A DNA stretch of 64,000 nt from Pseudolysinimonas sp. (GCA_035495435.1 DATJFV010000046.1:24072-88071), one strand, 5' to 3'; positions 39,414-51,250 are shown, counted from the first letter of the stretch. The notes: generated by a model from the letters alone, not told the origin. Made by a program: numbers and translations.

Positions 39414-40406
39414 TCACACGCGTGGCGCACCGATGGCGGCCGCGATGCGCGCGACGAGCAGGTGCGGCTCGTTCGTCACATCATCGGCGTGCACCTGCAT
39501 CACCCGAAAGCCGGCGGCCTGAAATCGTTCGCGCCGCGAGATGTCCCGGCGCCAGGCACGGGGGTCGGTGCGGTGATGATCGCCCTCGTACTCGATGACC
39601 AGACGGCGGTCGCGATACAGCACGTCGGGATGGAGGCCGACGATCTCGGGGTTCAGTTCGGGCTCGGGCAGCCCGGCGCGCACCAGCAGTAAACGTAGGC
39701 GCGTCTCCATGGGCGACTCGGCGCCGACGCGCACCTCGCGCATCGCCCCGCGGGCCCGTGCGGCGCCACGTGCTCGCGCCGGGATCGCTGCGGCGAGGCC
39801 GTCGACGGATGCGATGGCGGGCTTCCGCGCGACCCGCCGCGGAGTGACGAGGTAGTCCCCCACCGCGACCAGGTCGTCGTGGTCGAGCATGGAGGCGAGC
39901 TGCACGAACACCTGTGCGGGCCCCACGACAGGGAGGGTGCCCAGCATGGTCACCTCGAGGGCGGAGGATCGATGCCCCACGACGCCCGCACGCACGGGGC
40001 GACTGGCGCCTCCCGAGACAGTGACGTGGATGAGATGCTCGAACCGGCGGGGCAGCGGGGCCCCCCAGAGCCACGCTGCGGTCGTGTGACTGAACGCCGC
40101 ACCTGCGGGGAGCACCAGCAGAAGCGCCTCGCAGCGCTGCCGCAGGCCGACCGCCTCCCCGCCGATGATGTGGACCCCGTGATACGGATGGGTGACATCT
40201 GCGGCACGAACCCGCGAACGGGGAATGCCTGCACCGCGCAGCTCGCGCGACGCGATCGGCAGCCCGATCTGCAGCGGGTCGACCGGCGTTCGACGGGTCA
40301 CCGGGCCAGCCTGGCTCGCCTGCGCTCTCGGCGCGCGGAGTCTCCACAGCATCCGCACCCAAAGCGCGTCGAGAGGCGGATTCCGGCGGGTAATCGGCCA
40401 TCGCAC
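39414..40406 (-). CDS. DUF559 (Vsr-like endonuclease fold) domain protein
   Basis: C-terminal ESPMETRLRLLLVRAGLPEPELN...IEYEGDHHRTD...RRERFQAAGFRV pattern. The N-terminal start is uncertain. Confidence 0.72.
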   Translation of the reverse strand: MRWPITRRNPPLDALWVRMLWRLRAPRAQASQAGPVTRRTPVDPLQIGLPIASRELRGAGIPRSRVRAADVTHPYHGVHIIGGEAVGLRQRCEALLLVLPAGAAFSHTTAAWLWGAPLPRRFEHLIHVTVSGGASRPVRAGVVGHRSSALEVTMLGTLPVVGPAQVFVQLASMLDHDDLVAVGDYLVTPRRVARKPAIASVDGLAAAIPARARGAARARGAMREVRVGAESPMETRLRLLLVRAGLPEPELNPEIVGLHPDVLYRDRRLVIEYEGDHHRTDPRAWRRDISRRERFQAAGFRVMQVHADDVTNEPHLLVARIAAAIGAPRV

Positions 40407-40457: not shown

Positions 40458-42218
40458 TTAGAGCGCGGAGAGCAGGTCCGCGGCGGGGAGCTCGCGGCGC
40501 TCGCCCGAGCGGCGGTCCCAGAGTTCGACGACGCCGTCCGCAGCACCTCGGCCCGCGATGACGATCGTCGGCACGCCGAGCAGTTCCGCGTCACCGAACT
40601 TGACGCCCGGAGACACCTTGGGCCGGTCGTCGAGCAGCACCTCCCGACCCGACGACTCGAGCGCCGCCGCCACCTGCTCGGCCAGCTCCAGGGCCGCTGC
40701 GTCCTTGCCCGTCGCGATCACGTGCACATCGAACGGTGCCACCTCGGCCGGCCAGATGAGGCCCCGCTCGTCGTTGTTCGCCTCCGCGATGACCGCCATG
40801 ATGCGCGTCACGCCGATCCCGTACGAGCCCATGGTGACGGTGACCAACTTGCCGTTCTCGTCGAGCACCTGCAGCCCCAGGGCGTCGGCGTACTTGCGGC
40901 CGAGCTGGAACACGTGCCCGATCTCCATGCCGCGGGCGAGCTCCACCGGGCCGGAGCCGTCGGGCGCCGGGTCACCGGCGCGCACCTCGGCGACCTCGGC
41001 GGTGCCGTCGGAGCCGAAGTCGCGCCCGGCCACCAGCCCGAAGACGTGCTTGCCGTCGGCGTTGGCGCCGGTGATCCAGCCCGAGCCGTCGGCGACGCGC
41101 GGGTCCAGCAGGTACCGGATGCCGGTCGCCGACTCCTCGCCCAGCACGGCGCCCTGGGGTGACCAGGGCCCGATGTAGCCCTTCACCAGCAGCGGATGCT
41201 TCTCGAAGTCGGTGTCGACGGCCGCCTCGACCTCGGCGGGGGCGAACTGCACCTCGGCGCGCTTCATGTCGACCTCGCGGTCACCGGGAATGCCGACGAC
41301 CACCACCTCGCGCGTGCCGTCGAGATGCGTCAGCGCGAGCACCACGTTCTTCAGGGTGTCGGCGGCGGTCCAGGCCCGCCCGTCGGGTCGGGGGTGCTTG
41401 GCGTTGGCGACCTCGACCAGGGTCGCGATCGTGGGAGTGCCGGGCGTGTCGAGCACCTCGGCGGGCGTCAGCTTCTCGTAGGAGCGCGGCTCGGCGGGCG
41501 GGGTGACGTACGCCTCGACGTTGGCTGCGTAGCCGCCGTCCGAGCGCACGAAGGTGTCCTCGCCGATCGGGGTGGGGTGCAGGAACTCCTCCGACCGCGA
41601 CCCGCCCATCGCACCGGCGTCGGCCTGCACGATGGCGTACTCGAGGCCGAGGCGCTGGAAGATGCGCTCGTAGGCGTCGCGGTGCTGCTGGTACGACACG
41701 TCGAGCCCGGCGTCGTCGATGTCGAACGAGTACGAGTCCTTCATCGAGAACTCGCGCCCGCGCAGCAGCCCGGCGCGGGGGCGGGCCTCGTCGCGGTACT
41801 TGTCCTGGATCTGGTAGATCGACAGCGGCAGGTCCTTGTACGAGGTGTACAGGTCTTTCACCGTGAGGGTGAACACCTCTTCGTGCGTGGGCGCGAGCAG
41901 GTAGTCGGCGCCCTTGCGGTCCTTCAGCCGGAAGATCCCGTCGCCGTATTCCTCCCAGCGGCCGGTCACCTCGTAGGGTTCGCGCGGCAGCAGCGCGGGG
42001 AAGTGCACCTCCTGCGCGCCGAAACGTTCGAGCTCTTCGCGGATCACCTTCTCGATGCGGCGCCGCACCCGCAGGCCGAGCGGCAGCCAGGCGAAGATCC
42101 CCGGCGCCTGGCGCCGGATGTATCCGGCGCGGATCAGCAGGCGGTGGCTGGCAACCTCCGCGTCGGCGGGGTCGTCGCGCAGAGTGCGCACGAACAGCTG
42201 GGTCATCCGGGTAGGCAC
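40458..42218 (-). CDS. proS: proline--tRNA ligase
   Basis: 586-aa class II aaRS with an editing domain, starting [22 protein letters not shown]. Confidence 0.96.
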
Positions 42219-42253
42219 GATGCCAGCCTAATGACGCGTTCCGGATGCGATGG

Positions 42254-44500
42254 TCACGCCGTCGGCGGAACGTACGCCGAGCGCAGCCGCTCCTCGGGCA
42301 CGAGCCACTCTTCGCCCTGCTCGCCGCGGATCACCCACTGCCCGCTGCGGGCGGTCGTGGTGCCCTCGAGCGTCTCGATCACCTCTCCCGCACGGGCGGG
42401 CCGGGCCTGCACCGAGCCGGTGCGTTCATAGCGTCCTGGCCGGCCGGTCGGGCGGTGCGTGGCCTCGAAGATCCCGGCGGCGACCGAGTGCGTCGACCCG
42501 CGCTCGTCAACGACCTCCCAGTCGCCGGGCGAGCCGTGCAGGGTCTCCCCGGATGCGGTGGTCCACGACCAGGCCTCGTCGCGTTTGCGGGCGGTCACCT
42601 CTCCGCGGCGGGCGAACGTGCGCCATTGCACGTCGTCGAACGACCGGTACCCAAGCGTGGACAGCAGTTCCAGGCTGGAGCGCACGCCGTCCCGGGTCTT
42701 GTCCCGTGCCGCCTCGTCCAGTCGCTCCCAGTCGCGCAGGTCGGGGTGTCGACGACGGCGGTCGTCGCGAGCCGCGCCGTGCCGCCAGCCGTGGGATTCG
42801 AGGTGCCGCCGCCACGATTCGTGTTCGAGCTGCGCCATCCGCTCCAACTGCGTCGCGGAGGGCATGCCCGCGCGATCAGCGCCGGCGCCCCAGCTGCGTC
42901 CGACCGCGATGGCCGAGCCGAGCGTCGCGAGCACCTGGCGCACGTTGGAGGCTCGGTAGAACGCGCCGAGCTGTTCCCAGGGGCGACGGGATGCGATGGC
43001 CGGGTCGGGGTGGGCGCGGCGGTAGCGCTCGTGGCCGAGTCGCGCGATCCGTTCCCAGTTGTCGATCGGGCGACCGTTGCCGGCGTCGAGGGTGGTGCCG
43101 AAGGCGCGGACGTGGGCGAGAAGCGGCTCGGCTCCGAGCCCCACGACCTCGGCGAACCGGGAGTAGACCGGCCAGTCCGGCTGCCCCGCCCCGAGGACGG
43201 CGGCGAGACGCTGGCCGTCGGCCCCGGGCTCGCCGGTGAACACCACAGCCGGATTCGACGCACCCTCGGCGGCCTCCTCGATCCCCGCTGCGGTCGGCGC
43301 TGCGGCTGTCACCGTGGCGCGGACGCCGCCGGTGTTGCCGTAGCGCACCTGCGAGAACTCGTGCTGTTCGAGGATGGCGACGGCGTCGGGGTCGATGACC
43401 ACCACCGGCGGCACCGGCGGCTCCCCCAGCACCTCGTGCTCGCGCCCCTGCTGCGCCAGTTCGCCGAGAATGGCGAAGGTCAGCCCCGAGCGTCCGGCCA
43501 GGATGACCCGGTCCGCGCCGACACCGAGCAGATCGTCGACGACCAGCCGTGCGGTCACCTCGTCGGCGCTGATCGTGTCGACCACCCAGTCCGCGGCGCG
43601 CACGAGGTAGCGGCGGCGCCAGTCCTCCGCCTGCCAGGCATCGTCGATGCGCACCAGCACACGCACCGGGCCGCCGGCCCTGCGGCCGGCGACGGCCCCT
43701 TCGATCGAGCGCACCAGCCGCTGCGCCGCCGTGCTGTCGGGTGAGAGTACGGCGAGTGAGCGCAGGGCGCTGCCGGCGGGTCCGCGCCGGATGAGGCCGC
43801 GCACGGTGGCCGTGTTGGCGGGATCTCCGGTGACGACGCGCCAGCCCGCCGCTCGTGCGCTGCGCACCCAGGCGGCCCCGACATCCGGAGTCAGCACCAC
43901 CCGCACCGTGCCCGCGGCGCCCACCGCCAGCGCCGGCAGCAGGCCCGCAGAACTGTCGTCGACCCCCACTGCCAGGGTCACCCGCGGAGCCAGCCGCACG
44001 AGCGCACGGTCGAGCTGCCCCCGCAGCAACACCGCCACCGCTCGGGTCGCGGCGACGAACAGCACGGTCAGCACCACGAGTCGCCCGAACTGGAGGGCGA
44101 GCGGCGGGTTGTCGGGGCATGTCACCCCGTCGAACATGCTGGTGTCGTAGCTGTTGAGGACGAACGCCAGCACCCGCTGCACGACCGAGAACCAGCGTGC
44201 CTCACCGACCGGCGGGCAGCTGGCGTAGGCGGCGACGGCGAGCACCACGGCGGAGACGGTTCCCGCGGCGAGGAACACCAGGGCGAACGACAGGGAACGG
44301 TGCCGGCTGGGCCATGCCCAGGCTCCGAAGGCCAGGAACCCCAGGATGAGGGGGATCGCGACCGGCTCCCAGGCGGTGGTGTCGTTCCAGCGCGAGAGCC
44401 ACCCGGGCAGCGGTACGAAGATCGCCAGCACGAGCAGGCCGACGGCGAGGATGTAGCCGGCGAGCGCGAGGCGCGCGGCGACGCGGGCGACGGCGCTCAT
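42254..44500 (-). CDS. multi-pass membrane protein with two Rossmann-like segments, a RyR-type domain and a beta-rich C-terminal module
   Basis: Start set at ATG 44500, with an ATGA overlap with the TIR gene stop; the track's additional 34 codons are Arg-rich. About 5 N-terminal TM segments. RVILAGRSGLTFAILGELAQQG. RyR-like MAQLEHESWRRHLESHGWRHG...HPDLRDWERLDEAARDKTRDGV...LGY. Confidence 0.8.
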   Translation of the reverse strand: MSAVARVAARLALAGYILAVGLLVLAIFVPLPGWLSRWNDTTAWEPVAIPLILGFLAFGAWAWPSRHRSLSFALVFLAAGTVSAVVLAVAAYASCPPVGEARWFSVVQRVLAFVLNSYDTSMFDGVTCPDNPPLALQFGRLVVLTVLFVAATRAVAVLLRGQLDRALVRLAPRVTLAVGVDDSSAGLLPALAVGAAGTVRVVLTPDVGAAWVRSARAAGWRVVTGDPANTATVRGLIRRGPAGSALRSLAVLSPDSTAAQRLVRSIEGAVAGRRAGGPVRVLVRIDDAWQAEDWRRRYLVRAADWVVDTISADEVTARLVVDDLLGVGADRVILAGRSGLTFAILGELAQQGREHEVLGEPPVPPVVVIDPDAVAILEQHEFSQVRYGNTGGVRATVTAAAPTAAGIEEAAEGASNPAVVFTGEPGADGQRLAAVLGAGQPDWPVYSRFAEVVGLGAEPLLAHVRAFGTTLDAGNGRPIDNWERIARLGHERYRRAHPDPAIASRRPWEQLGAFYRASNVRQVLATLGSAIAVGRSWGAGADRAGMPSATQLERMAQLEHESWRRHLESHGWRHGAARDDRRRRHPDLRDWERLDEAARDKTRDGVRSSLELLSTLGYRSFDDVQWRTFARRGEVTARKRDEAWSWTTASGETLHGSPGDWEVVDERGSTHSVAAGIFEATHRPTGRPGRYERTGSVQARPARAGEVIETLEGTTTARSGQWVIRGEQGEEWLVPEERLRSAYVPPTA

Positions 44501-47271
44501 CGGTCGCACCCCAGGTCGGCGGGGGGTGCGGTGCCGATCAGGGTCGACCATTCGTCCGCGGTCAGGTCTCGGCCGGCAACCGCGCACACGGCCGTGCGCC
44601 ACTCGGTGGGCACCAGGCTGAGTCGGCTCACGGTCGAGGGTCGCGGGGGCGCGGCGATCTCCTGGGTCGACAGGATGAGGGCAGAGCCGTCGGGCGAGAA
44701 GGCCGCGATGGTGAAGCGGTTCTCCTGTTGGGGCACGGCGATCCGGCCGAATACCGTTCCGCTGCGTGCGAGGTCGAGCAGCTGCAGCGTGCCGGTCGAG
44801 CCCCCGGTCGCCAGCAGCCGGCCGTCGGCGCTCAGGGCGGGCGGCGGGTTCTGGTCGGCATCGGCGGGACGTGAGGACACCTCTGCGCCCGACGAGTCGA
44901 GCACCGTGTCGGTGCCGTCGGTGAACACGTGCAGGCGGGAGTCGCCGTCATAGGCCGCGGCGCTCGGGTCGGCGCTTTCGTAGAGGACCTCGCCGGAGGC
45001 GACGTCGACGACGCGCAGGCCGATGTCGGCGAACAGCGCGAACGCGGTCGACTGATCCGGTGCGATGCCGTAGATCAGCGGCAGCGGCCCGGGGAAGCGG
45101 TCGGCGAACGGTTTCGACGTCGTCTCGGCGCCATCGCGCTTCACGGTCATGACGGAGCCGTCGTCGGCGAGGACCGTGGCCGCGCCGGTCGAGGCGTCAG
45201 CGCGCACGCTGATCACGACTACCCCGTCGTCCAGCGGGATCGGGAGGGAGTCGGCGACCTCGAACGTCGTCGCGTCCGCCAGGTACAGCAGGTGATCGGT
45301 GGACGAGGCGACGGCGAACGTGGTGTCGTCCCACCATGCGGCCGCGGTCAGACCGAACGCGCCATCCGGGTCGATCGGCAGACCCTCCCCCGTGCTGAGG
45401 TCGACGGCCACCGGAGACCCCCCGGAGATCGCCTGCACGAGCACGCGGTCGCCGCTGTCGTTCACCGACATCACCTGCGGTCCGCAGGCCGTGCAGCCCT
45501 CGGGTACGGGCACCGCGAACTGCGTCGTGATCCGTCCCGCCTGCGACAGGTCCCAGACCAAGGCGAAGTCGCCGGTGCCGTTGACCAAAGTGTCACCGCG
45601 GAAGGTCAGCGTCTCGGCGTTCACGTTCCCGGCCCCCAGCAGCGCGATCGGCGGTTCCGGCAATGCATCGGGTGCACGCGCGGTGGACACATAGATCGCG
45701 CCCGTGTCCATCACGGCCAGCCGGGAGCCGGTGTCGTCGAGCGCCACGTCCAGCGACCCGGCGAGCTGGCTGGTGGCGACGCGATCCGCGGGATCTCCCT
45801 CGACGGTCCCGCCGTCGGACACCGAGCCGACGACGTTCCAGATCGAGTAGTTGACGGTCTTGTCCAGGGACCCGACGAGTGCGTTTCCGTCGCGCGACAC
45901 TCCGAAGACATTCGCGGCGATCCCCAGCGTGTGCTGGCCCGAGGCGATGACCGAGGCGTCGTCGAGCGAGATGCGCGCCCAGAATCCGGCCTGGTTGAAG
46001 GTGGTCAGCTCGTGATCGCCGAACCCGATGCGGCCGCCGAACGGCACGGTGCCGACGGACGTGTACACGCTCTCGCCCTGGTCCACCCCGCGGCGGAGGA
46101 GGGTCAGCCACGTGGATCGGTTCGAGACCGCCAGGTAGCTCCCGTCGGCCGAGAGCGCGACGAGGGTCGCCGGCGTCTCGTCCGCGGGAGGCGGCACGGT
46201 CGCTTCAGTGTCTCCGGCCGGGGTGACGATGCGCACCGCGTCGTCGCCGGCGACCGCGGCGACATCGGCACCGTCATCCGACACCGCGATCCAGCCGACG
46301 GGAGCGTTGAGGTCGGCCAGGACGGTGCGCTCGGCCCCGTCCCAGCGCGAGACGGCCCCGGAGGCGTCCCCGGTGAAGACGGTGCCGTCGGCGGCGACGG
46401 CGGTCGCGTTGACGCGCGCACCGACCGCGAGGGTCCTGACCAGTTGCGGACTGGTGGTCGCCAGCTGGAACAGCGCCGCCCGGGTCTGTGCGTCGTCGTT
46501 CATCCGCTGGGCCTCGACCGCGAGCAGCGATGCGGTCTGCAGGTCGGTGGCACTCAGCGTGATCGCTTGTGCCGCCAGCTGCCGGGCCAACGCGATGCGC
46601 GCCTGCTCCGCGGCTGCGTTGCCGTTCACCACAGCGATGACGGTGGCGACGAGGGATGCCACGAGTAGCGCCGAGAGCGCGATCACCCCGCCACGCGCGA
46701 GACGCAGTGCGCGGCGGCGCTGCTGCACGTTCTCGCCGATCAGCTCGTCGCGCTCCATGCCGCGGATGGCGGACGCGAGGTCGGCCACGCGCTCGTTGAA
46801 CCGGGGGTCTGCGGTGCCGAGCGACCCCTCCGCCTCGAACCAGGGCATCTCGACCCAGCGCGGCTCCTCGGGGAACGCCTTCGAGAGCGCCCGGTTGACC
46901 GCCGTCGACCGCTTCCAGTCGAAGTCGTTCGTCTTCGGGTCCCAGTACATCTCGCCCTCGTCGAGGACGAGCAGGATGCGGTCAGCCGACTTGTGCTCGA
47001 GCCACCAGGTGATCTCGGTGGTCACGTACTGCGACGCGGCGGACTTCGGGCTGCACAGCAGGATGAACCAGTCAGCCTCGGTCAGCCCGCGCTCGATGTT
47101 CGACCAGAGGCCCGTGTTGGCCGACATTGTCGCGTCGTCGAGGAACACCCGCGACGAGCGCAGTCGGTACCAGGGCTTCGCGAACCGCTCGATGCCGTTG
47201 CGCAGGGCGACCGCGAGCCCGCTCGACGCCGAGCGCGAGTAGGAGATGAAGGCGTCGAACCGGGCTGCCAC
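44497..47271 (-). CDS. TIR-domain protein with a single TM helix and a large C-terminal beta-propeller (WD40-like) region
   Basis: GTG start. TIR motifs FDAFISYSRS and DWFILLCSPKSAASQYVTTEITWW. TM helix GVIALSALLVASLVATVIAVV preceded by QQRRRALRLAR. More than 10 blade-like DG repeats. C-terminal CAVAGRDLTADEW...C motif. Confidence 0.85.
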   Translation of the reverse strand: MAARFDAFISYSRSASSGLAVALRNGIERFAKPWYRLRSSRVFLDDATMSANTGLWSNIERGLTEADWFILLCSPKSAASQYVTTEITWWLEHKSADRILLVLDEGEMYWDPKTNDFDWKRSTAVNRALSKAFPEEPRWVEMPWFEAEGSLGTADPRFNERVADLASAIRGMERDELIGENVQQRRRALRLARGGVIALSALLVASLVATVIAVVNGNAAAEQARIALARQLAAQAITLSATDLQTASLLAVEAQRMNDDAQTRAALFQLATTSPQLVRTLAVGARVNATAVAADGTVFTGDASGAVSRWDGAERTVLADLNAPVGWIAVSDDGADVAAVAGDDAVRIVTPAGDTEATVPPPADETPATLVALSADGSYLAVSNRSTWLTLLRRGVDQGESVYTSVGTVPFGGRIGFGDHELTTFNQAGFWARISLDDASVIASGQHTLGIAANVFGVSRDGNALVGSLDKTVNYSIWNVVGSVSDGGTVEGDPADRVATSQLAGSLDVALDDTGSRLAVMDTGAIYVSTARAPDALPEPPIALLGAGNVNAETLTFRGDTLVNGTGDFALVWDLSQAGRITTQFAVPVPEGCTACGPQVMSVNDSGDRVLVQAISGGSPVAVDLSTGEGLPIDPDGAFGLTAAAWWDDTTFAVASSTDHLLYLADATTFEVADSLPIPLDDGVVVISVRADASTGAATVLADDGSVMTVKRDGAETTSKPFADRFPGPLPLIYGIAPDQSTAFALFADIGLRVVDVASGEVLYESADPSAAAYDGDSRLHVFTDGTDTVLDSSGAEVSSRPADADQNPPPALSADGRLLATGGSTGTLQLLDLARSGTVFGRIAVPQQENRFTIAAFSPDGSALILSTQEIAAPPRPSTVSRLSLVPTEWRTAVCAVAGRDLTADEWSTLIGTAPPADLGCDR

Positions 47272-47291
47272 GCCCCGAGACTAGCGGGGCG
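47271..47291 (-). promoter_or_regulatory. stem-loop abutting the TIR start codon, with a -10-like TAGTCT in its loop (possible leaderless promoter)
   Basis: CGCCCCG/CGGGGCG 7-bp stem. On the minus strand TAGTCT (47283-47278) ends 6 nt before the GTG. No Shine-Dalgarno sequence is visible. Confidence 0.3.
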
Positions 47292-47296
47292 GGTTT

Positions 47297-47393
47297 CGAT
47301 ACGCGGCCTGCGGCCGCTCCTCAACCAGCGATACGGCGGCCTGCGGCCGGTACTCAACCAGCGATACGCGGCCTGCGGCCGCTACTCAACCAG
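47297..47393 (-). repeat. three tandem 32-33-bp copies of the ispG 3' end plus a GC hairpin
   Basis: Units at 47297-47328, 47329-47361 and 47362-47393. Minus-strand unit CTGGTTGAGTAGCGGCCGCAGGCCGCGTATCG. The third unit contains the real ispG stop (47386-47388). Each unit carries a GCGGCC-gca-GGCCGC hairpin (CCGGCC-gca-GGCCGC, 5 bp, in the middle copy). Confidence 0.85.
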
Positions 47394-48540
47394 CGGTGAC
47401 GACCTCGGGGCTGCCCAGCTCGCCGGGAGGCATCTCGGCCGCGAGACGGTTCGCCTCCTCGATGAGGGTCTGCACGATCTCCGACTCGGGGACCGTCTTG
47501 ATCACCTCACCCTTGACGAAGATCTGGCCCTTGCCGTTGCCCGAGGCGACGCCGAGGTCGGCCTCACGGGCCTCCCCCGGACCGTTGACGACGCAGCCCA
47601 TCACCGCGACGCGCAGCGGCACCGTCATGCCCTGCAGTCCCTCGGTGACGTCGTTGGCGAGCGTGTAGACATCGACCTGCGCCCGTCCGCACGAGGGGCA
47701 CGACACGATCTCGAGCTTGCGCTCGCGCAGGTTCAGCGACTGCAGGATCTGCAGGCCCACCTTCACCTCCTGCGCCGGCGGGGCGGACAGCGAGACGCGG
47801 ATGGTGTCGCCGATGCCCTCCGAGAGCAGGATGCCGAACGCGGTCGCGCTCTTGATCGTTCCCTGGAACTCGGGGCCGGCCTCCGTCACACCGAGGTGCA
47901 GCGGCCAGTCGCCGCGCTCAGCCAGCATGCGGTACGCCTTGACCATCACGACGGGATCGTTGTGCTTGACCGAGATCTTGAAGTCGTGGAAGTCGTGCTC
48001 CTCGAACAGCGACGCCTCCCAGACGGCGCTCTCGACGAGAGCCTCGGCGGTCGCCTTGCCGTACTTCTCCAGCAGGCGCGGGTCGAGCGAGCCCGCGTTG
48101 ACGCCGATCCGGATGCTGACCCCGGCATCCTTGGCGGCCTTCGCGATCGCGCCCACCTGGTCGTCGAACTTGCGGATGTTGCCGGGATTCACCCGCACGG
48201 CGCCGCAGCCGGCGTCGATGGCCTGGAACACGTACTTCGGCTGGAAGTGGATGTCGGCAATGACCGGGATCTGCGACTTCTTGGCGATGATGTGCAGCAC
48301 GTCGGCGTCGTCCTGCGACGGCACGGCCACACGCACGATGTCGCACCCCGATGCGGTGAGCTCGGCGATCTGCTGCAGCGTCGCGTTGATGTTCGTCGTC
48401 GGGGTGGTGCACATCGACTGCACGCTGACCGGGGCGTCGCCCCCGACCAGCACCTTGCCGACCTTGATCTGGCGGCTCTTGCGACGGGGTGCGAGGACTT
48501 CGGGGGCCGGTTTCGGCATCCCGATGTTGACGGCTGGCAT
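47386..48540 (-). CDS. ispG: 4-hydroxy-3-methylbut-2-en-1-yl diphosphate synthase
   Basis: I checked the track translation codon by codon against the DNA. Motifs SMCTTPT and CPSCGR. Confidence 0.97.
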
Positions 48541-49637: not shown

Positions 49638-50504
49638 TCAGAGCAGTGAGCGGATGACGTCGGCGACCTGGCGTGCGCCGGGTTCCGCCATGACGATCGA
49701 GTAGTGGTTGACGTCGGCCACCTCGACGACGGCGAGTTGCGGGATGTCGGCGCGGAACTCCTCCATCCGACCGGGTGGGTACAGCGGCTCGGCGTTCAGC
49801 AGACCGCGAGGGGCACGCAGAGCGGTGACCGGCATCCGGAGTCCCCGCAGGGCGTCGAGGTACCAGTCCGGGCCGAACTGATCGCCGGAATCGACCAGCA
49901 CCGCCTCGCGCCGCGCCGACGGGCGAAGGCGCGGCGGCTCGCCGACGAGGTCGTAGCGCAGGTAGTCCTCGACCGCGGGGCCCCAGAGCTCAGTCATCGC
50001 CGGATGCTCGCGCCAGAACGCGAGATAGTCCTCGATACCGGCGAACTCCTGGTCGAGCCGGGCGAGAGCCGGGCCAAGCGCCGCCTGCAGCAACTCGGGC
50101 AGTGCCATGCCATCCGGCAGGACGAGCGGGAACCCGCCGTCGATGAGAACGAGACCCGACACCTCCGCGATGTCGGCCAGCGCCACCGCCGCGAACGCGC
50201 CCATGGAGTGTCCGACGACCACCGGCGAGCGCATGTCGTAGGTCTGCATCAGCGTCGCGAGATCCTCGGCGTGCTGACGCAGACCGTACGGCGGCGGCAG
50301 CTCGCGGCTGCGGGCACGCCCGCGCAGATCGGGGGCGAGGATGCGGTAGCCGCTCAGCTGCCCCGCCAACTCCAGGAAGGCACGGCTCGACGCGGTCACG
50401 CCGTGGATGGCAAGGATGGTGGGCGCACCGTCGTCGTCGGGGCCGAAGCGGTAGCCGTGCAACTCGCCGCCGCGCACATACGCCGTGAAGGGGCTGCCGG
50501 TCAT
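49638..50504 (-). CDS. alpha/beta hydrolase
   Basis: Start at ATG 50504, with an ATGA overlap with the SDR stop. Motifs ILAIHG and GHSMGA. Confidence 0.85.
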   Translation of the reverse strand: MTGSPFTAYVRGGELHGYRFGPDDDGAPTILAIHGVTASSRAFLELAGQLSGYRILAPDLRGRARSRELPPPYGLRQHAEDLATLMQTYDMRSPVVVGHSMGAFAAVALADIAEVSGLVLIDGGFPLVLPDGMALPELLQAALGPALARLDQEFAGIEDYLAFWREHPAMTELWGPAVEDYLRYDLVGEPPRLRPSARREAVLVDSGDQFGPDWYLDALRGLRMPVTALRAPRGLLNAEPLYPPGRMEEFRADIPQLAVVEVADVNHYSIVMAEPGARQVADVIRSLL

Positions 50505-51250
50505 CGTGCGCTCCACCCGCCGTCCATCAGGTGCGAGGCGCCGGTGACCATGCCGGCCTCGTCGCTGCAGAGCCACAGCACCTGCGCCGCCACCTCCTCG
50601 GGTTCGAGCAGGCGCTTGATCGAGGACTCGGTCAGCATCACTTTCTCGATCACCTCGGACTCCGGGATGCCGTGCACGCGCGCCTGGTCGGCGATCTGCT
50701 TCTCGACGAGCGGCGTGCGCACGTACCCCGGGTTGATGCAGTTGCTGGTGACCCCGTGCGGGCCGCCCTCGAGGGCCGTCACCTTGCTGAGCCCCTCGAG
50801 CGCGTGCTTCGCGGTCACGTAGGCCACCTTGTACGGGCTGGCGCGGACGCCGTGCACCGAGCTGATGTTGACCACGCGCCCCCAGCCGCGGGTGTACATC
50901 CCGGGCAGCACGGCGCGCGTCAGCAGGAAGGGCGCGGTGACCATGAGGTCGATCATCCGCCGGAACACCTCGGGCTCGAACTGCTCGATCGGCGCGATGG
51001 TCTGAACGCCCGCGTTGTTCACGAGGATGTCGGCATCGAGGGCGACGGATGCCAGCGCGTCCAGGTCGGCGAGGTCGAGCACCAGCGCCTCGCCCCCGAT
51101 CGCGGCGGCGGCCCGGTCGGCGCCCTCGGCATCCCGGTCGATAACGGTTACTCGTGCTCCGGCGCGTCCCAGCGCCGTCGCGGTCGCCAGGCCGATGCCG
51201 CTCGCGCCACCCGTGACGAGGGCGTGTCGACCCTCGAGCTGCGCTGCCAT
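50501..51250 (-). CDS. short-chain dehydrogenase, 3-hydroxybutyrate-dehydrogenase-like
   Basis: Start at ATG 51250. TGGASGIG, NNAG and YVTAKHA (YxxxK) motifs, ending ...DGGWSAR. Confidence 0.87.
   Translation of the reverse strand: MAAQLEGRHALVTGGASGIGLATATALGRAGARVTVIDRDAEGADRAAAAIGGEALVLDLADLDALASVALDADILVNNAGVQTIAPIEQFEPEVFRRMIDLMVTAPFLLTRAVLPGMYTRGWGRVVNISSVHGVRASPYKVAYVTAKHALEGLSKVTALEGGPHGVTSNCINPGYVRTPLVEKQIADQARVHGIPESEVIEKVMLTESSIKRLLEPEEVAAQVLWLCSDEAGMVTGASHLMDGGWSAR

Follow-up and report, generated by a model that had tools for sequence, protein, structure and literature searches.

A receptor-like TIR protein encoded beside a RyR- and RCK-domain membrane protein: a candidate two-gene signalling module of Actinobacteria

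A 64,000-nucleotide stretch of DNA from Pseudolysinimonas sp. (GCA_035495435.1, DATJFV010000046.1:24072-88071; hereafter the window) carries on its minus strand two adjacent genes that encode large membrane proteins. Gene 1 combines a TIR domain with a single transmembrane (TM) helix and a beta-propeller region, and gene 2 combines a TM region with two RCK-type Rossmann domains, a RyR unit and a PGDYG-like tail (Table 1). In our judgment, the chances are roughly even that the two genes make up a membrane-bound two-component TIR signalling module, in which a product of the TIR domain acts on a channel-like RyR/RCK effector. A first-pass annotation, made from the sequence of the window, had proposed a TIR enzyme with a sensor coupled to a membrane effector and had given the pair a defence-like label; our analysis supports this interpretation, the defence label excepted. 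TIR second-messenger signalling is already known, and what is new here is the combination of a receptor-type TIR protein with a RyR/RCK channel-like effector.

The two genes share a 4-nt ATGA stop/start overlap, read directly in the sequence, which suggests that they are translationally coupled. Both open reading frames (ORFs) translate as the first-pass annotation had described them, and every peptide motif that it quoted lies where it had been placed. Overlaps of 4 or 13 nt are retained in four related loci (L001, L006, L008 and L009), with protein identity of 40-72%. In L001, L006 and L008, the TIR-TM-propeller gene precedes the effector gene at the same ispG...proS site; its stop codon overlaps the start of the effector gene, and effector identity is 45-72%. 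The L009 pair occupies another site.

Gene 2 belongs to a large family, hereafter the effector family. A HMMER search of 1.84 billion representatives returned 397 clusters (formed at 50% identity) at E<1e-30, and about 100 of the 150 matches listed have the full-length architecture. All of the sequences fetched look actinobacterial, the family occurring mainly in Actinobacteria, including Mycobacterium-like and Rhodococcus genomes. We surveyed the neighbourhood of this family in an unbiased sample of 80 metagenome loci, collected by a peptide pattern in the effector that was derived from a narrower alignment (A3), a wider one (A2) being too diverse. Flanking genes were called by a codon log-likelihood caller trained on family genes, and loci were collapsed into lineages at 80% identity. 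TIR domains were detected with a hidden Markov model (HMM) built from all partner classes; a version built from relatives of gene 1 alone missed the other classes. A TIR gene was present in the fetched flank of 22 of the 80 loci. At the level of lineages, a TIR gene lies no more than 382 bp from the effector in 17 of 35, often overlapping it; one large lineage owes its positive score to just 3 of 21 members. Among lineages with at least 1.5 kb of sequence on both sides, 10 of 15 have such a neighbour. By rank from the effector, TIR genes make up 17/132 of the immediate neighbours, 5/99 of the genes at rank 2, 4/86 of those at rank 3 and 0/239 from rank 4 outward (Fisher p = 1.2e-8). The preferential adjacency of homologues that the first-pass annotation had anticipated is borne out by these counts.

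The neighbouring TIR proteins are of at least six architectures: TIR-TM-propeller, TIR_2-TM-PknH_C, TIR-nSTAND1-TM-WD40, TIR-NB-ARC, TIR_2-ROK and short TIR. Proteins of the TIR_2-TM-PknH_C type (~480 aa) are encoded downstream of the effector with a 4-nt overlap in L044, L051, L060, L070 and L071; those of L035, L039, L045, L049 and L059 are encoded on the other strand. In L031 and L040, a TIR-nSTAND1-TM-WD40 gene (~1400 aa) overlaps the effector stop by 19 nt. A TIR-NB-ARC protein with a helix-turn-helix domain is encoded divergently from the effector in L003 and L015, a 229-aa TIR protein and a 988-aa TIR-WD40 protein adjoin it in L007, and two tandem TIR-TM-WD40 genes stand beside it in L065 and L066. 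On a linear megaplasmid of Rhodococcus qingshengii (L096), a DUF4062-STAND gene is divergent from the effector, and genes for a WD40 protein and a TIR protein lie downstream. Directly upstream of the effector homologue of L058 lies a fusion of TIR_2 (67.6 bits) with a ROK sugar kinase/repressor (153.7 bits; L058:5212-6732, plus strand), an uncommon arrangement for a TIR protein. Start/stop overlaps between a TIR gene and the effector are seen in both gene orders. Since the TIR domain is the sole feature common to all of these neighbours, the functional partnership appears to be with the TIR domain itself. In L044, two very large Gly-rich repeat proteins resembling PE_PGRS proteins are encoded upstream of the pair (L044:1-5749, plus strand), which places this lineage in Mycobacterium-like genomes.

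The N-terminal domain of gene 1 is a TIR domain, as first read: Pfam TIR_2 (PF13676) matches aa 39-105 with 30.6 bits against a cut-off of 28. Glu86, which the first-pass annotation had put at the catalytic position, indeed falls on the conserved Glu when gene 1 is aligned with solved TIR domains (Cat1, 7uxr, PdTIR 3h16 and 4lzp). It is part of an S-x-[YW]-V-x-x-E motif that is invariant in the aligned members of the gene 1 family (107/107), and F8, S10, D45, S80 and E86 are invariant over all partner TIR classes. Among solved structures, a profile of gene 1 and the partner TIRs matched Cat1, AbTIR, TcpB, PdTIR, SARM1, RUN1 and ROQ1 with E-values from 1e-12 to 1e-7; a phmmer search of the PDB with the single sequence of the TIR domain had returned nothing relevant. 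By profile and by its putative catalytic Glu, the gene 1 TIR domain would fall into the enzymatic NADase/cyclase class, and activity on NAD+ is predicted.

The TIR domain is followed by one TM helix, as had been noted, preceded by an Arg-rich segment. Under the positive-inside rule, gene 1 is predicted to have an N-in/C-out topology, with the TIR domain in the cytoplasm and the C-terminal 700 aa outside. Those 700 aa had been described as blade-like repeats: full-length homologues at 30-35% identity have many strong Pfam WD40 matches, whereas the WD40/beta-propeller matches of gene 1 itself (aa 279-391 and 774-869) fall below the cut-off. The TM-linker-WD40 module of gene 1 recurs in partner proteins. 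Within the last 40 residues, C896 and C922 are kept in all 106 homologues compared and W908 in 105 of them, and the same Cys...Trp...Cys motif also terminates the WD40 partner proteins of L031 and L065. The motif may be a disulfide-bonded cap, which would suit the predicted extracytoplasmic position of the domain. Members of the gene 1 family number more than 442 in Actinomycetota and come, among others, from Lentzea, Saccharothrix, Propionibacteriaceae and Tessaracoccus; a contig scan with the single gene 1 protein recovered one close relative.

For gene 2, we generated an AlphaFold model from a 34-sequence alignment (mean pLDDT 88.5, pTM 0.75 at full length; pLDDT 89.5 for the N-terminal 475 aa modelled alone). 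The model consists of four TM helices, two alpha/beta Rossmann domains, the four-helix RyR unit (aa 481-615) and a beta-stranded tail. About five TM segments had been proposed; four are TM helices in the model, and the fifth is a short helix (aa 102-114), possibly re-entrant, in the loop between TM3 and TM4. This loop also includes an extended Cys95...Cys128...Pro133 stretch, and the whole insert is modelled as pore-loop-like. Y92, C95, C128 and P133 are invariant among close homologues, and P133 is invariant in the wide family. TM4 leads directly into the Rossmann-type domains. In a Foldseek search of the PDB, the best match of the N-terminal part was full-length MthK (6oly_A, E 3.9e-5), followed by human Slo1. 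Further matches were the TrkA ring (4j9v_B; TM-score 0.39/0.40, root-mean-square deviation (rmsd) 4.8 A), the DMI1 and CASTOR rings and KefC, and the full-length model also matched GsuK.

L068 encodes a 576-aa paralogue to which the gene 2 family profile can be aligned from one end to the other (E 1e-44), and in this paralogue the equivalent segment is recognised as Pfam TrkA_N (61.6 bits). On the strength of these fold matches and of this alignment, the two Rossmann-like segments recognised at first reading are RCK domains in tandem that follow a pore-type membrane domain. The arrangement of a TM helix, short helix, loop and TM helix followed by two RCK domains is that of MthK, GsuK, Slo1/BK, CASTOR/DMI1, TrkA and KefC, and the modelled fold agrees with the earlier suggestion of a possibly channel-like effector. 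Gene 2 differs from these proteins in having two extra N-terminal TM helices, an invariant pair of Cys residues in the outer loop and, at the C-terminus, the RyR unit and the PGDYG-like tail. The tail, described earlier as beta-rich, has beta strands in the model, and in isolation it matches Pfam PGDYG (27.3 bits, cut-off 27). Phage 'PGDYG proteins' from BFVD superpose on it with an rmsd of 1.2-1.3 A over 51 columns. A giant protein, P0162 (3743 aa), contains 17 separate stretches that match the tail (profile positions 636-755), so the tail domain occurs elsewhere as a long tandem-repeat array.

The identity of the RyR unit is clear. Pfam RyR (PF02026) matches aa 552-619 with 43.7 bits (cut-off 27.4), in agreement with the first-pass annotation, and the family profile matches the repeats of RyR1/2/3 with an E-value of 5e-30. 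RyR proteins are the only ones among the best 60 of 92 matches of the family profile in the PDB, and human RyR3 Repeat12 and phage RyR-domain proteins match the unit in Foldseek. The presence of two RyR repeats in gene 2 was considered and rejected, as alignment with RyR Tad and with the RyR repeats gives one four-helix unit with internal pseudo-symmetry. Gene 2 and animal RyR Repeat12 are clearly homologous in sequence, and in both the domain is cytoplasmic on a cation-channel protein, if the predicted function of gene 2 is right. Gene 2 has a single repeat unit, so dimerisation would be needed, whereas the animal repeats are in tandem, and its pore domain is unrelated to the six-TM RyR pore.

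A possible ligand is indicated by two 2026 preprints on phage RyR-domain proteins, which bind the TIR products 2'cADPR and 3'cADPR (isomers of cyclic ADP-ribose, cADPR) at nanomolar affinity or cleave them (PMC13232231; bioRxiv 10.64898/2026.06.04.730250). RyDEP of mycobacteriophage DyoEdafos is a RyR-domain glycosidase with the contact residues H75, W78, H100 and D117, and other phage homologues are sponges (PMC13232231). RyR Tad (Pectobacterium phage CB1 gp68) sequesters 1''-3' gcADPR via H129/W132, K147/H154 and K170/D171 (bioRxiv 10.64898/2026.06.04.730250). These proteins share the PF02026 family and the four-helix unit with gene 2, their fold matches having an rmsd of 3.5-5 A. We aligned gp68 with the gene 2 family and counted residue conservation over 45 members. 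H129 of gp68 corresponds to His560 (conserved in 44/45), W132 to Trp563 (45/45), K147 to Arg578 (35/45), H154 to His585 (36/45), Y160 to Trp591 (44/45) and H82 to His490 (45/45). The spacing of the ligand-contact positions (His-x-x-Trp, Gly-Trp, basic residue, His-Pro) is identical in gene 2 and the phage RyR proteins. Most of the residues that bind 2'/3'cADPR in the phage homologues are thus conserved in gene 2 (His560, Trp563, Arg578 and His585). A link from a TIR product to the RyR domain had been offered as purely speculative; the phage precedent and these residues now speak for it, and the acidic residue of the phage site, which is not conserved, does not.

Phages also encode proteins that superpose on the C-terminal modules of gene 2. 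Actinobacterial phages (Arthrobacter phage Xenomorph and Rhodococcus phage Finch) have small RyR-domain proteins, and other phages (Ackermannviridae, Siphoviridae) have stand-alone PGDYG proteins, the BFVD matches to the two modules being A0A514A401, A0A2P1JXV5 and A0A8S5VIU8. Both C-terminal modules of gene 2 therefore have phage counterparts. A tblastn search of phage genomes with the RyR segment and with the whole of gene 2 found no similarity. A PGDYG-like identity was also considered for the N-terminal domain of RyR Tad, for which Pfam gave no match. In the Mycobacterium-like cobT-cobS...ilvE-gcvT context (L046-L069), a RyR-only ORF of ~163 aa precedes the effector, for example at L069:6289-6804 and L065:6313-6804. 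It corresponds to the C-terminus of the 576-aa TM-TrkA_N-RyR paralogue that is intact at L068:1520-3250 and L091:1175-2902. Two readings of this ORF are offered: a remnant left by truncation, or a RyR protein in its own right that might serve the host as a sponge.

No named system among those of PADLOC, NCBIfam and Thoeris types I-XI matches the module. As the first-pass annotation had expected, there was no system call: PADLOC gave a weak ThsB match on gene 1 (E 1e-4) and none on gene 2, NCBIfam gave no call either (ThcB4, 13.1 bits against a cut-off of 220), and Pfam ThsB_TIR scored 16.4 bits on gene 1, under its cut-off of 21.2. Literature searches (TIR with PknH, TrkA with RyR domain, and RyR with SLOG and TIR) found no earlier description of the pairing. 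The closest parallel is Thoeris, in which a TIR gene likewise stands beside a membrane effector, often translationally coupled to it, with the same expected logic of an NAD-derived signal that activates the effector. A recent survey lists 29 putative effector types, of which types V-XI were validated (bioRxiv 10.64898/2025.12.03.692087). Type X, composed of ThsB and an 'ion channel' ThsK, is a validated precedent for coupling a TIR protein to an ion channel (bioRxiv 10.64898/2025.12.03.692087). The accessible portions of the survey's text and supplements mention neither RyR nor TrkA effectors. The survey kept TIR clusters enriched near defence genes and dropped standalone TIRs (bioRxiv 10.64898/2025.12.03.692087), so a family embedded among housekeeping genes would be missed.

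There are also differences from Thoeris. Gene 1 is a 924-aa membrane receptor with a predicted extracytoplasmic propeller, whereas ThsB is small and cytoplasmic; gene 2 is a 748-aa RCK and RyR protein unrelated to the 208-aa ThsK; and the gene pair is found outside a defence-island context. ThsK as a relative of gene 2 was rejected: the protein from a Vibrio type X locus (L095:3369-3995), which has a TLTYGG pore signature, gave an hhalign probability of 0.06% against alignment A2. Hence the module would work like Thoeris, type X especially, but differs from it in profile models, in ThsK homology and in genomic setting. Gene 1 can also be compared with bacterial TIR-STAND and TIR-WD40 conflict proteins and with SARM1-type NAD+-depleting TIRs, the common ground being an N-terminal TIR domain with the catalytic Glu and a WD40 repeat-type sensor, and some partners of the effector family are themselves TIR-nSTAND1-WD40 or TIR-NB-ARC proteins. 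Unlike these proteins, gene 1 has no NTPase, its TM helix is predicted to put the propeller outside, and a dedicated effector gene is coupled to it. Toll-like receptors offer an analogy of topology only, being likewise single-pass proteins whose repeat-type sensor is extracellular and whose TIR domain is cytoplasmic. The orientation of gene 1 is the opposite (N-terminal TIR, type II), its sensor is a beta-propeller instead of leucine-rich repeats, and its TIR domain, which retains the enzymatic Glu, would be expected to work as an enzyme and not as a scaffold; common descent is implied for the TIR domain only.

The mechanism that we propose begins with gene 1 as a type-II membrane receptor, its propeller directed toward the cell envelope and its TIR domain toward the cytoplasm. 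Clustering of the receptor, induced by a ligand or by damage, would activate the TIR domain through Glu86, and NAD+ would be converted into an ADP-ribose-derived nucleotide, most likely a cyclic ADP-ribose (ADPR) isomer. The nucleotide would bind the RyR unit of gene 2 at His560, Trp563, Arg578 and His585, and the RCK ring would relay the binding to the membrane domain, altering ion flux and membrane potential. Cells would then stop growing or undergo abortive infection; an envelope-stress response is the alternative outcome.

Three sets of observations weigh against this module. The first concerns the pairing. The TIR HMM is partly circular, having been built from partner TIRs; Pfam confirms representatives of four classes (PknH_C, NB-ARC, ROK and short TIR) with scores above cut-off, and the nSTAND1-class TIR is assigned by our own HMM and a sequence motif. 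Gene 1 homologues are solo in L011-L013 (Propionibacteriaceae and elsewhere), and the effector has no TIR neighbour in L005 or in roughly half of the lineages. These solo effector lineages comprise group A (behind PlsC-type acyltransferases), group B (cobT-cobS...ilvE-gcvT, with Mycobacterium-like synteny) and group C. The frequent solo occurrence of both families fits an alternative in which the two proteins act independently, gene 1 being a sensor with an NAD+-depleting TIR domain (SARM1/TIR-STAND-like) and gene 2 an RCK channel regulated by the ATP/ADP/NAD pool, their adjacency then reflecting shared membrane biogenesis, regulation or history. Repeat12 of animal RyR binds ATP/ADP (PDB titles 6uhh and 9l91), and the Thoeris survey notes that bacterial TIRs can be NAD+-depleting effectors and sets standalone TIRs aside (bioRxiv 10.64898/2025.12.03.692087). 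However, independence does not account for a TIR domain as the one element common to six neighbour architectures, for start/stop overlaps in both gene orders, or for a TIR share that drops from 13% of immediate neighbours to 0/239 at rank 4 or beyond. Moreover, a solo effector and a solo TIR-TM-propeller gene lie ~95 kb apart on one contig, so pairing in trans is possible. We regard independent action as improbable.

The second set concerns gene 2 itself. Unlike RCK channels, it lacks a TVGYG-type K+ filter, its loop reading VLNSYDTSMFDGVTCPDNPP and the family consensus having no GYG. The GxGxxG dinucleotide motif is likewise absent, the corresponding segments being degenerate in both domains (VGVDDSS in RCK1 and LAGRSGL in RCK2). 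In view of both, channel function, selectivity and conduction are put forward here as predictions. In the RyR unit, the acidic residue of RyDEP and RyR Tad has no conserved Asp as its counterpart at the candidate positions 599-602, where the alignment of the last helix is ambiguous; the ligand could for this reason be a different one (for example ATP, ADP or ADPR). The same residue bears on whether the RyR unit might remove the TIR signal, as an enzyme or a sponge that provides self-immunity or an off-switch, instead of being the receptor that triggers the response. RyDEP is a RyR-domain glycosidase, its phage relatives are sponges, and the catalytic-type His560 is conserved in all but one of the 45 family members. 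Against this, Asp117 of RyDEP, the acid of its catalytic dyad, has no conserved counterpart: one alignment places T/A/N/S opposite it and the other D/R/E/A, and as no Asp is conserved under either, the unit tentatively looks like a binder and not a RyDEP-type glycosidase. Nor would a sponge or hydrolase need a 470-aa membrane and RCK apparatus, conserved end to end. We give signal removal very little credence: in gene 2 the RyR unit belongs to the host and is joined to a membrane/RCK module, which makes the role of a receptor more plausible than that of a sponge or an enzyme.

The third set concerns the genomic setting. The locus lies between ispG and proS, its GC content (~70%) shows no break in composition from the rest of the window, and it is syntenic across L001, L006 and L008. 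A syntenic housekeeping position and surroundings of like GC suggest vertical inheritance, and the locus does not look like a mobile defence island. A defence-island location, contemplated in the first-pass annotation, was not what we found: the window pair and most related loci lie among housekeeping genes, the exceptions being L007 and L096. This setting would suit a physiological version of the same chain, in which a TIR product gates the RyR/RCK channel and an outside-in cue from the envelope or environment, for example cell-wall fragments or glycans sensed by the beta-propeller or PknH_C, tunes ion homeostasis or membrane potential. Besides the stable synteny among housekeeping genes (ispG...proS; cobT-cobS...ilvE-gcvT) at native GC, it can draw on the outward-facing sensors, which include PknH_C, the sensor domain of a mycobacterial Ser/Thr kinase, on the TIR_2-ROK partner of L058, which hints at sugar sensing, and on a window pair that has no known defence genes beside it. 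By contrast, the TIR partners linked to STAND modules (nSTAND1, NB-ARC and DUF4062) are typical of conflict systems, partners are swapped in a modular way and distribution is patchy, and members of the effector family are also found on a megaplasmid (L096) and, in L007, in an island rich in hypothetical genes. Actinophages, moreover, encode RyR-domain proteins (BFVD matches; PMC13232231), described as neutralising TIR signals (PMC13232231). On balance, the physiological version seems rather unlikely to us and, given the shared signalling mechanism, defence is somewhat more likely than physiological signalling.

The pair is part of a co-directional minus-strand array that runs from genes for an M50 site-2 protease, an SDR, an alpha/beta hydrolase and ispG (GcpE) through gene 1 and gene 2 to proS, a DUF559-type gene, nusA and infB. 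The nearest relatives are metagenome-assembled Microbacteriaceae (Pseudolysinimonas and Schumannella). A scan of positions 41900-47700 for promoter and terminator consensus sequences found none. The DUF559-type gene between proS and nusA is a 330-aa ORF (39414-40406, minus strand) with a C-terminal DUF559 / MTES_1575 endonuclease-like domain (23.5 bits, cut-off 20.6); it is missing at the equivalent position in L006 and L008 and so looks like a separate small insertion in the housekeeping array. In L001 (10263-15772) and L006 (10359-15823), an operon of the order MoxR(AAA_3)-DUF58-DUF4381-VWA-VWA-TPR (BatA-like) separates the effector gene from proS; it is absent from the window and from L008. 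A 372-aa ORF at 49704-50822 (plus strand) has no Pfam match and overlaps, on the opposite strand, the position of the alpha/beta hydrolase in syntenic loci. It is probably a spurious antisense ORF of a type common in high-GC DNA.

Table 1. Coordinates of gene 1, gene 2 and their predicted features in the window
Feature	Position	Strand	Description and basis
Gene 1	44497..47271	minus	924 aa, GTG start; TIR-TM-beta-propeller receptor-like protein; ORF translation
TIR domain (~aa 1-150)	46822..47271	minus	Pfam TIR_2 above cut-off; predicted cytoplasmic
Glu86 codon	47014..47016	minus	Putative catalytic glutamate of TIR NADase/cyclase; invariance and alignment to solved TIRs
Single TM helix (aa 189-221)	46609..46707	minus	Hydropathy 2.73; preceded by Arg-rich QQRRRALRLAR
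Divergent WD40-like beta-propeller region (~aa 265-880)	44632..46479	minus	Predicted extracytoplasmic; sub-threshold Pfam matches
C-terminal Cys...Trp...Cys motif (C896, W908, C922)	44506..44616	minus	Homologue alignment
ATGA stop/start overlap of genes 1 and 2	44497..44500	minus	Read directly in sequence
Gene 2 ('T family')	42254..44500	minus	748 aa, ATG at 44500; TM region-tandem RCK-RyR unit-PGDYG-like tail
Membrane domain TM1-TM4 (aa 1-170)	43991..44500	minus	AlphaFold models, Foldseek
Two RCK/TrkA_N-type Rossmann domains (aa 171-330, 331-475)	43076..43990	minus	Foldseek; L068 paralogue
RyR (Repeat12-type) unit (aa 478-620)	42641..43069	minus	Four helices; His490, Trp508, His560, Trp563, Arg578, His585, Trp591
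Beta-rich PGDYG-like tail (aa 621-748)	42257..42640	minus	Pfam PGDYG, model strands

If the proposed module is real, a host-side receptor with a RyR domain joins TIR signalling, in which RyR domains have so far been known only as phage counter-defence proteins. Such a host effector would explain where phages obtained their RyR domains, and a host origin for these counter-defence proteins would be likely. The outward-facing TIR sensors would represent a new bacterial trigger of TIR signalling, Toll-like in topology. The pair would also provide a tractable two-gene bacterial system in which to study cADPR-type gating via RyR Repeat12, a question long debated for animal RyRs. A more far-reaching view, which we hold possible but tentative, is that Actinobacteria have a Toll-like outside-in pathway, leading from a propeller- or PknH-type receptor through a TIR cyclase to a cADPR-type nucleotide that gates a cation channel via RyR Repeat12. 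Such a pathway would be the prokaryotic counterpart, possibly the ancestor, of the proposed animal cADPR-RyR axis, and its receptor would be the host protein mimicked by phage RyR sponges and glycosidases. The effector family is large and is found mainly in Actinobacteria, a group in which both defence and signalling systems are under-explored.

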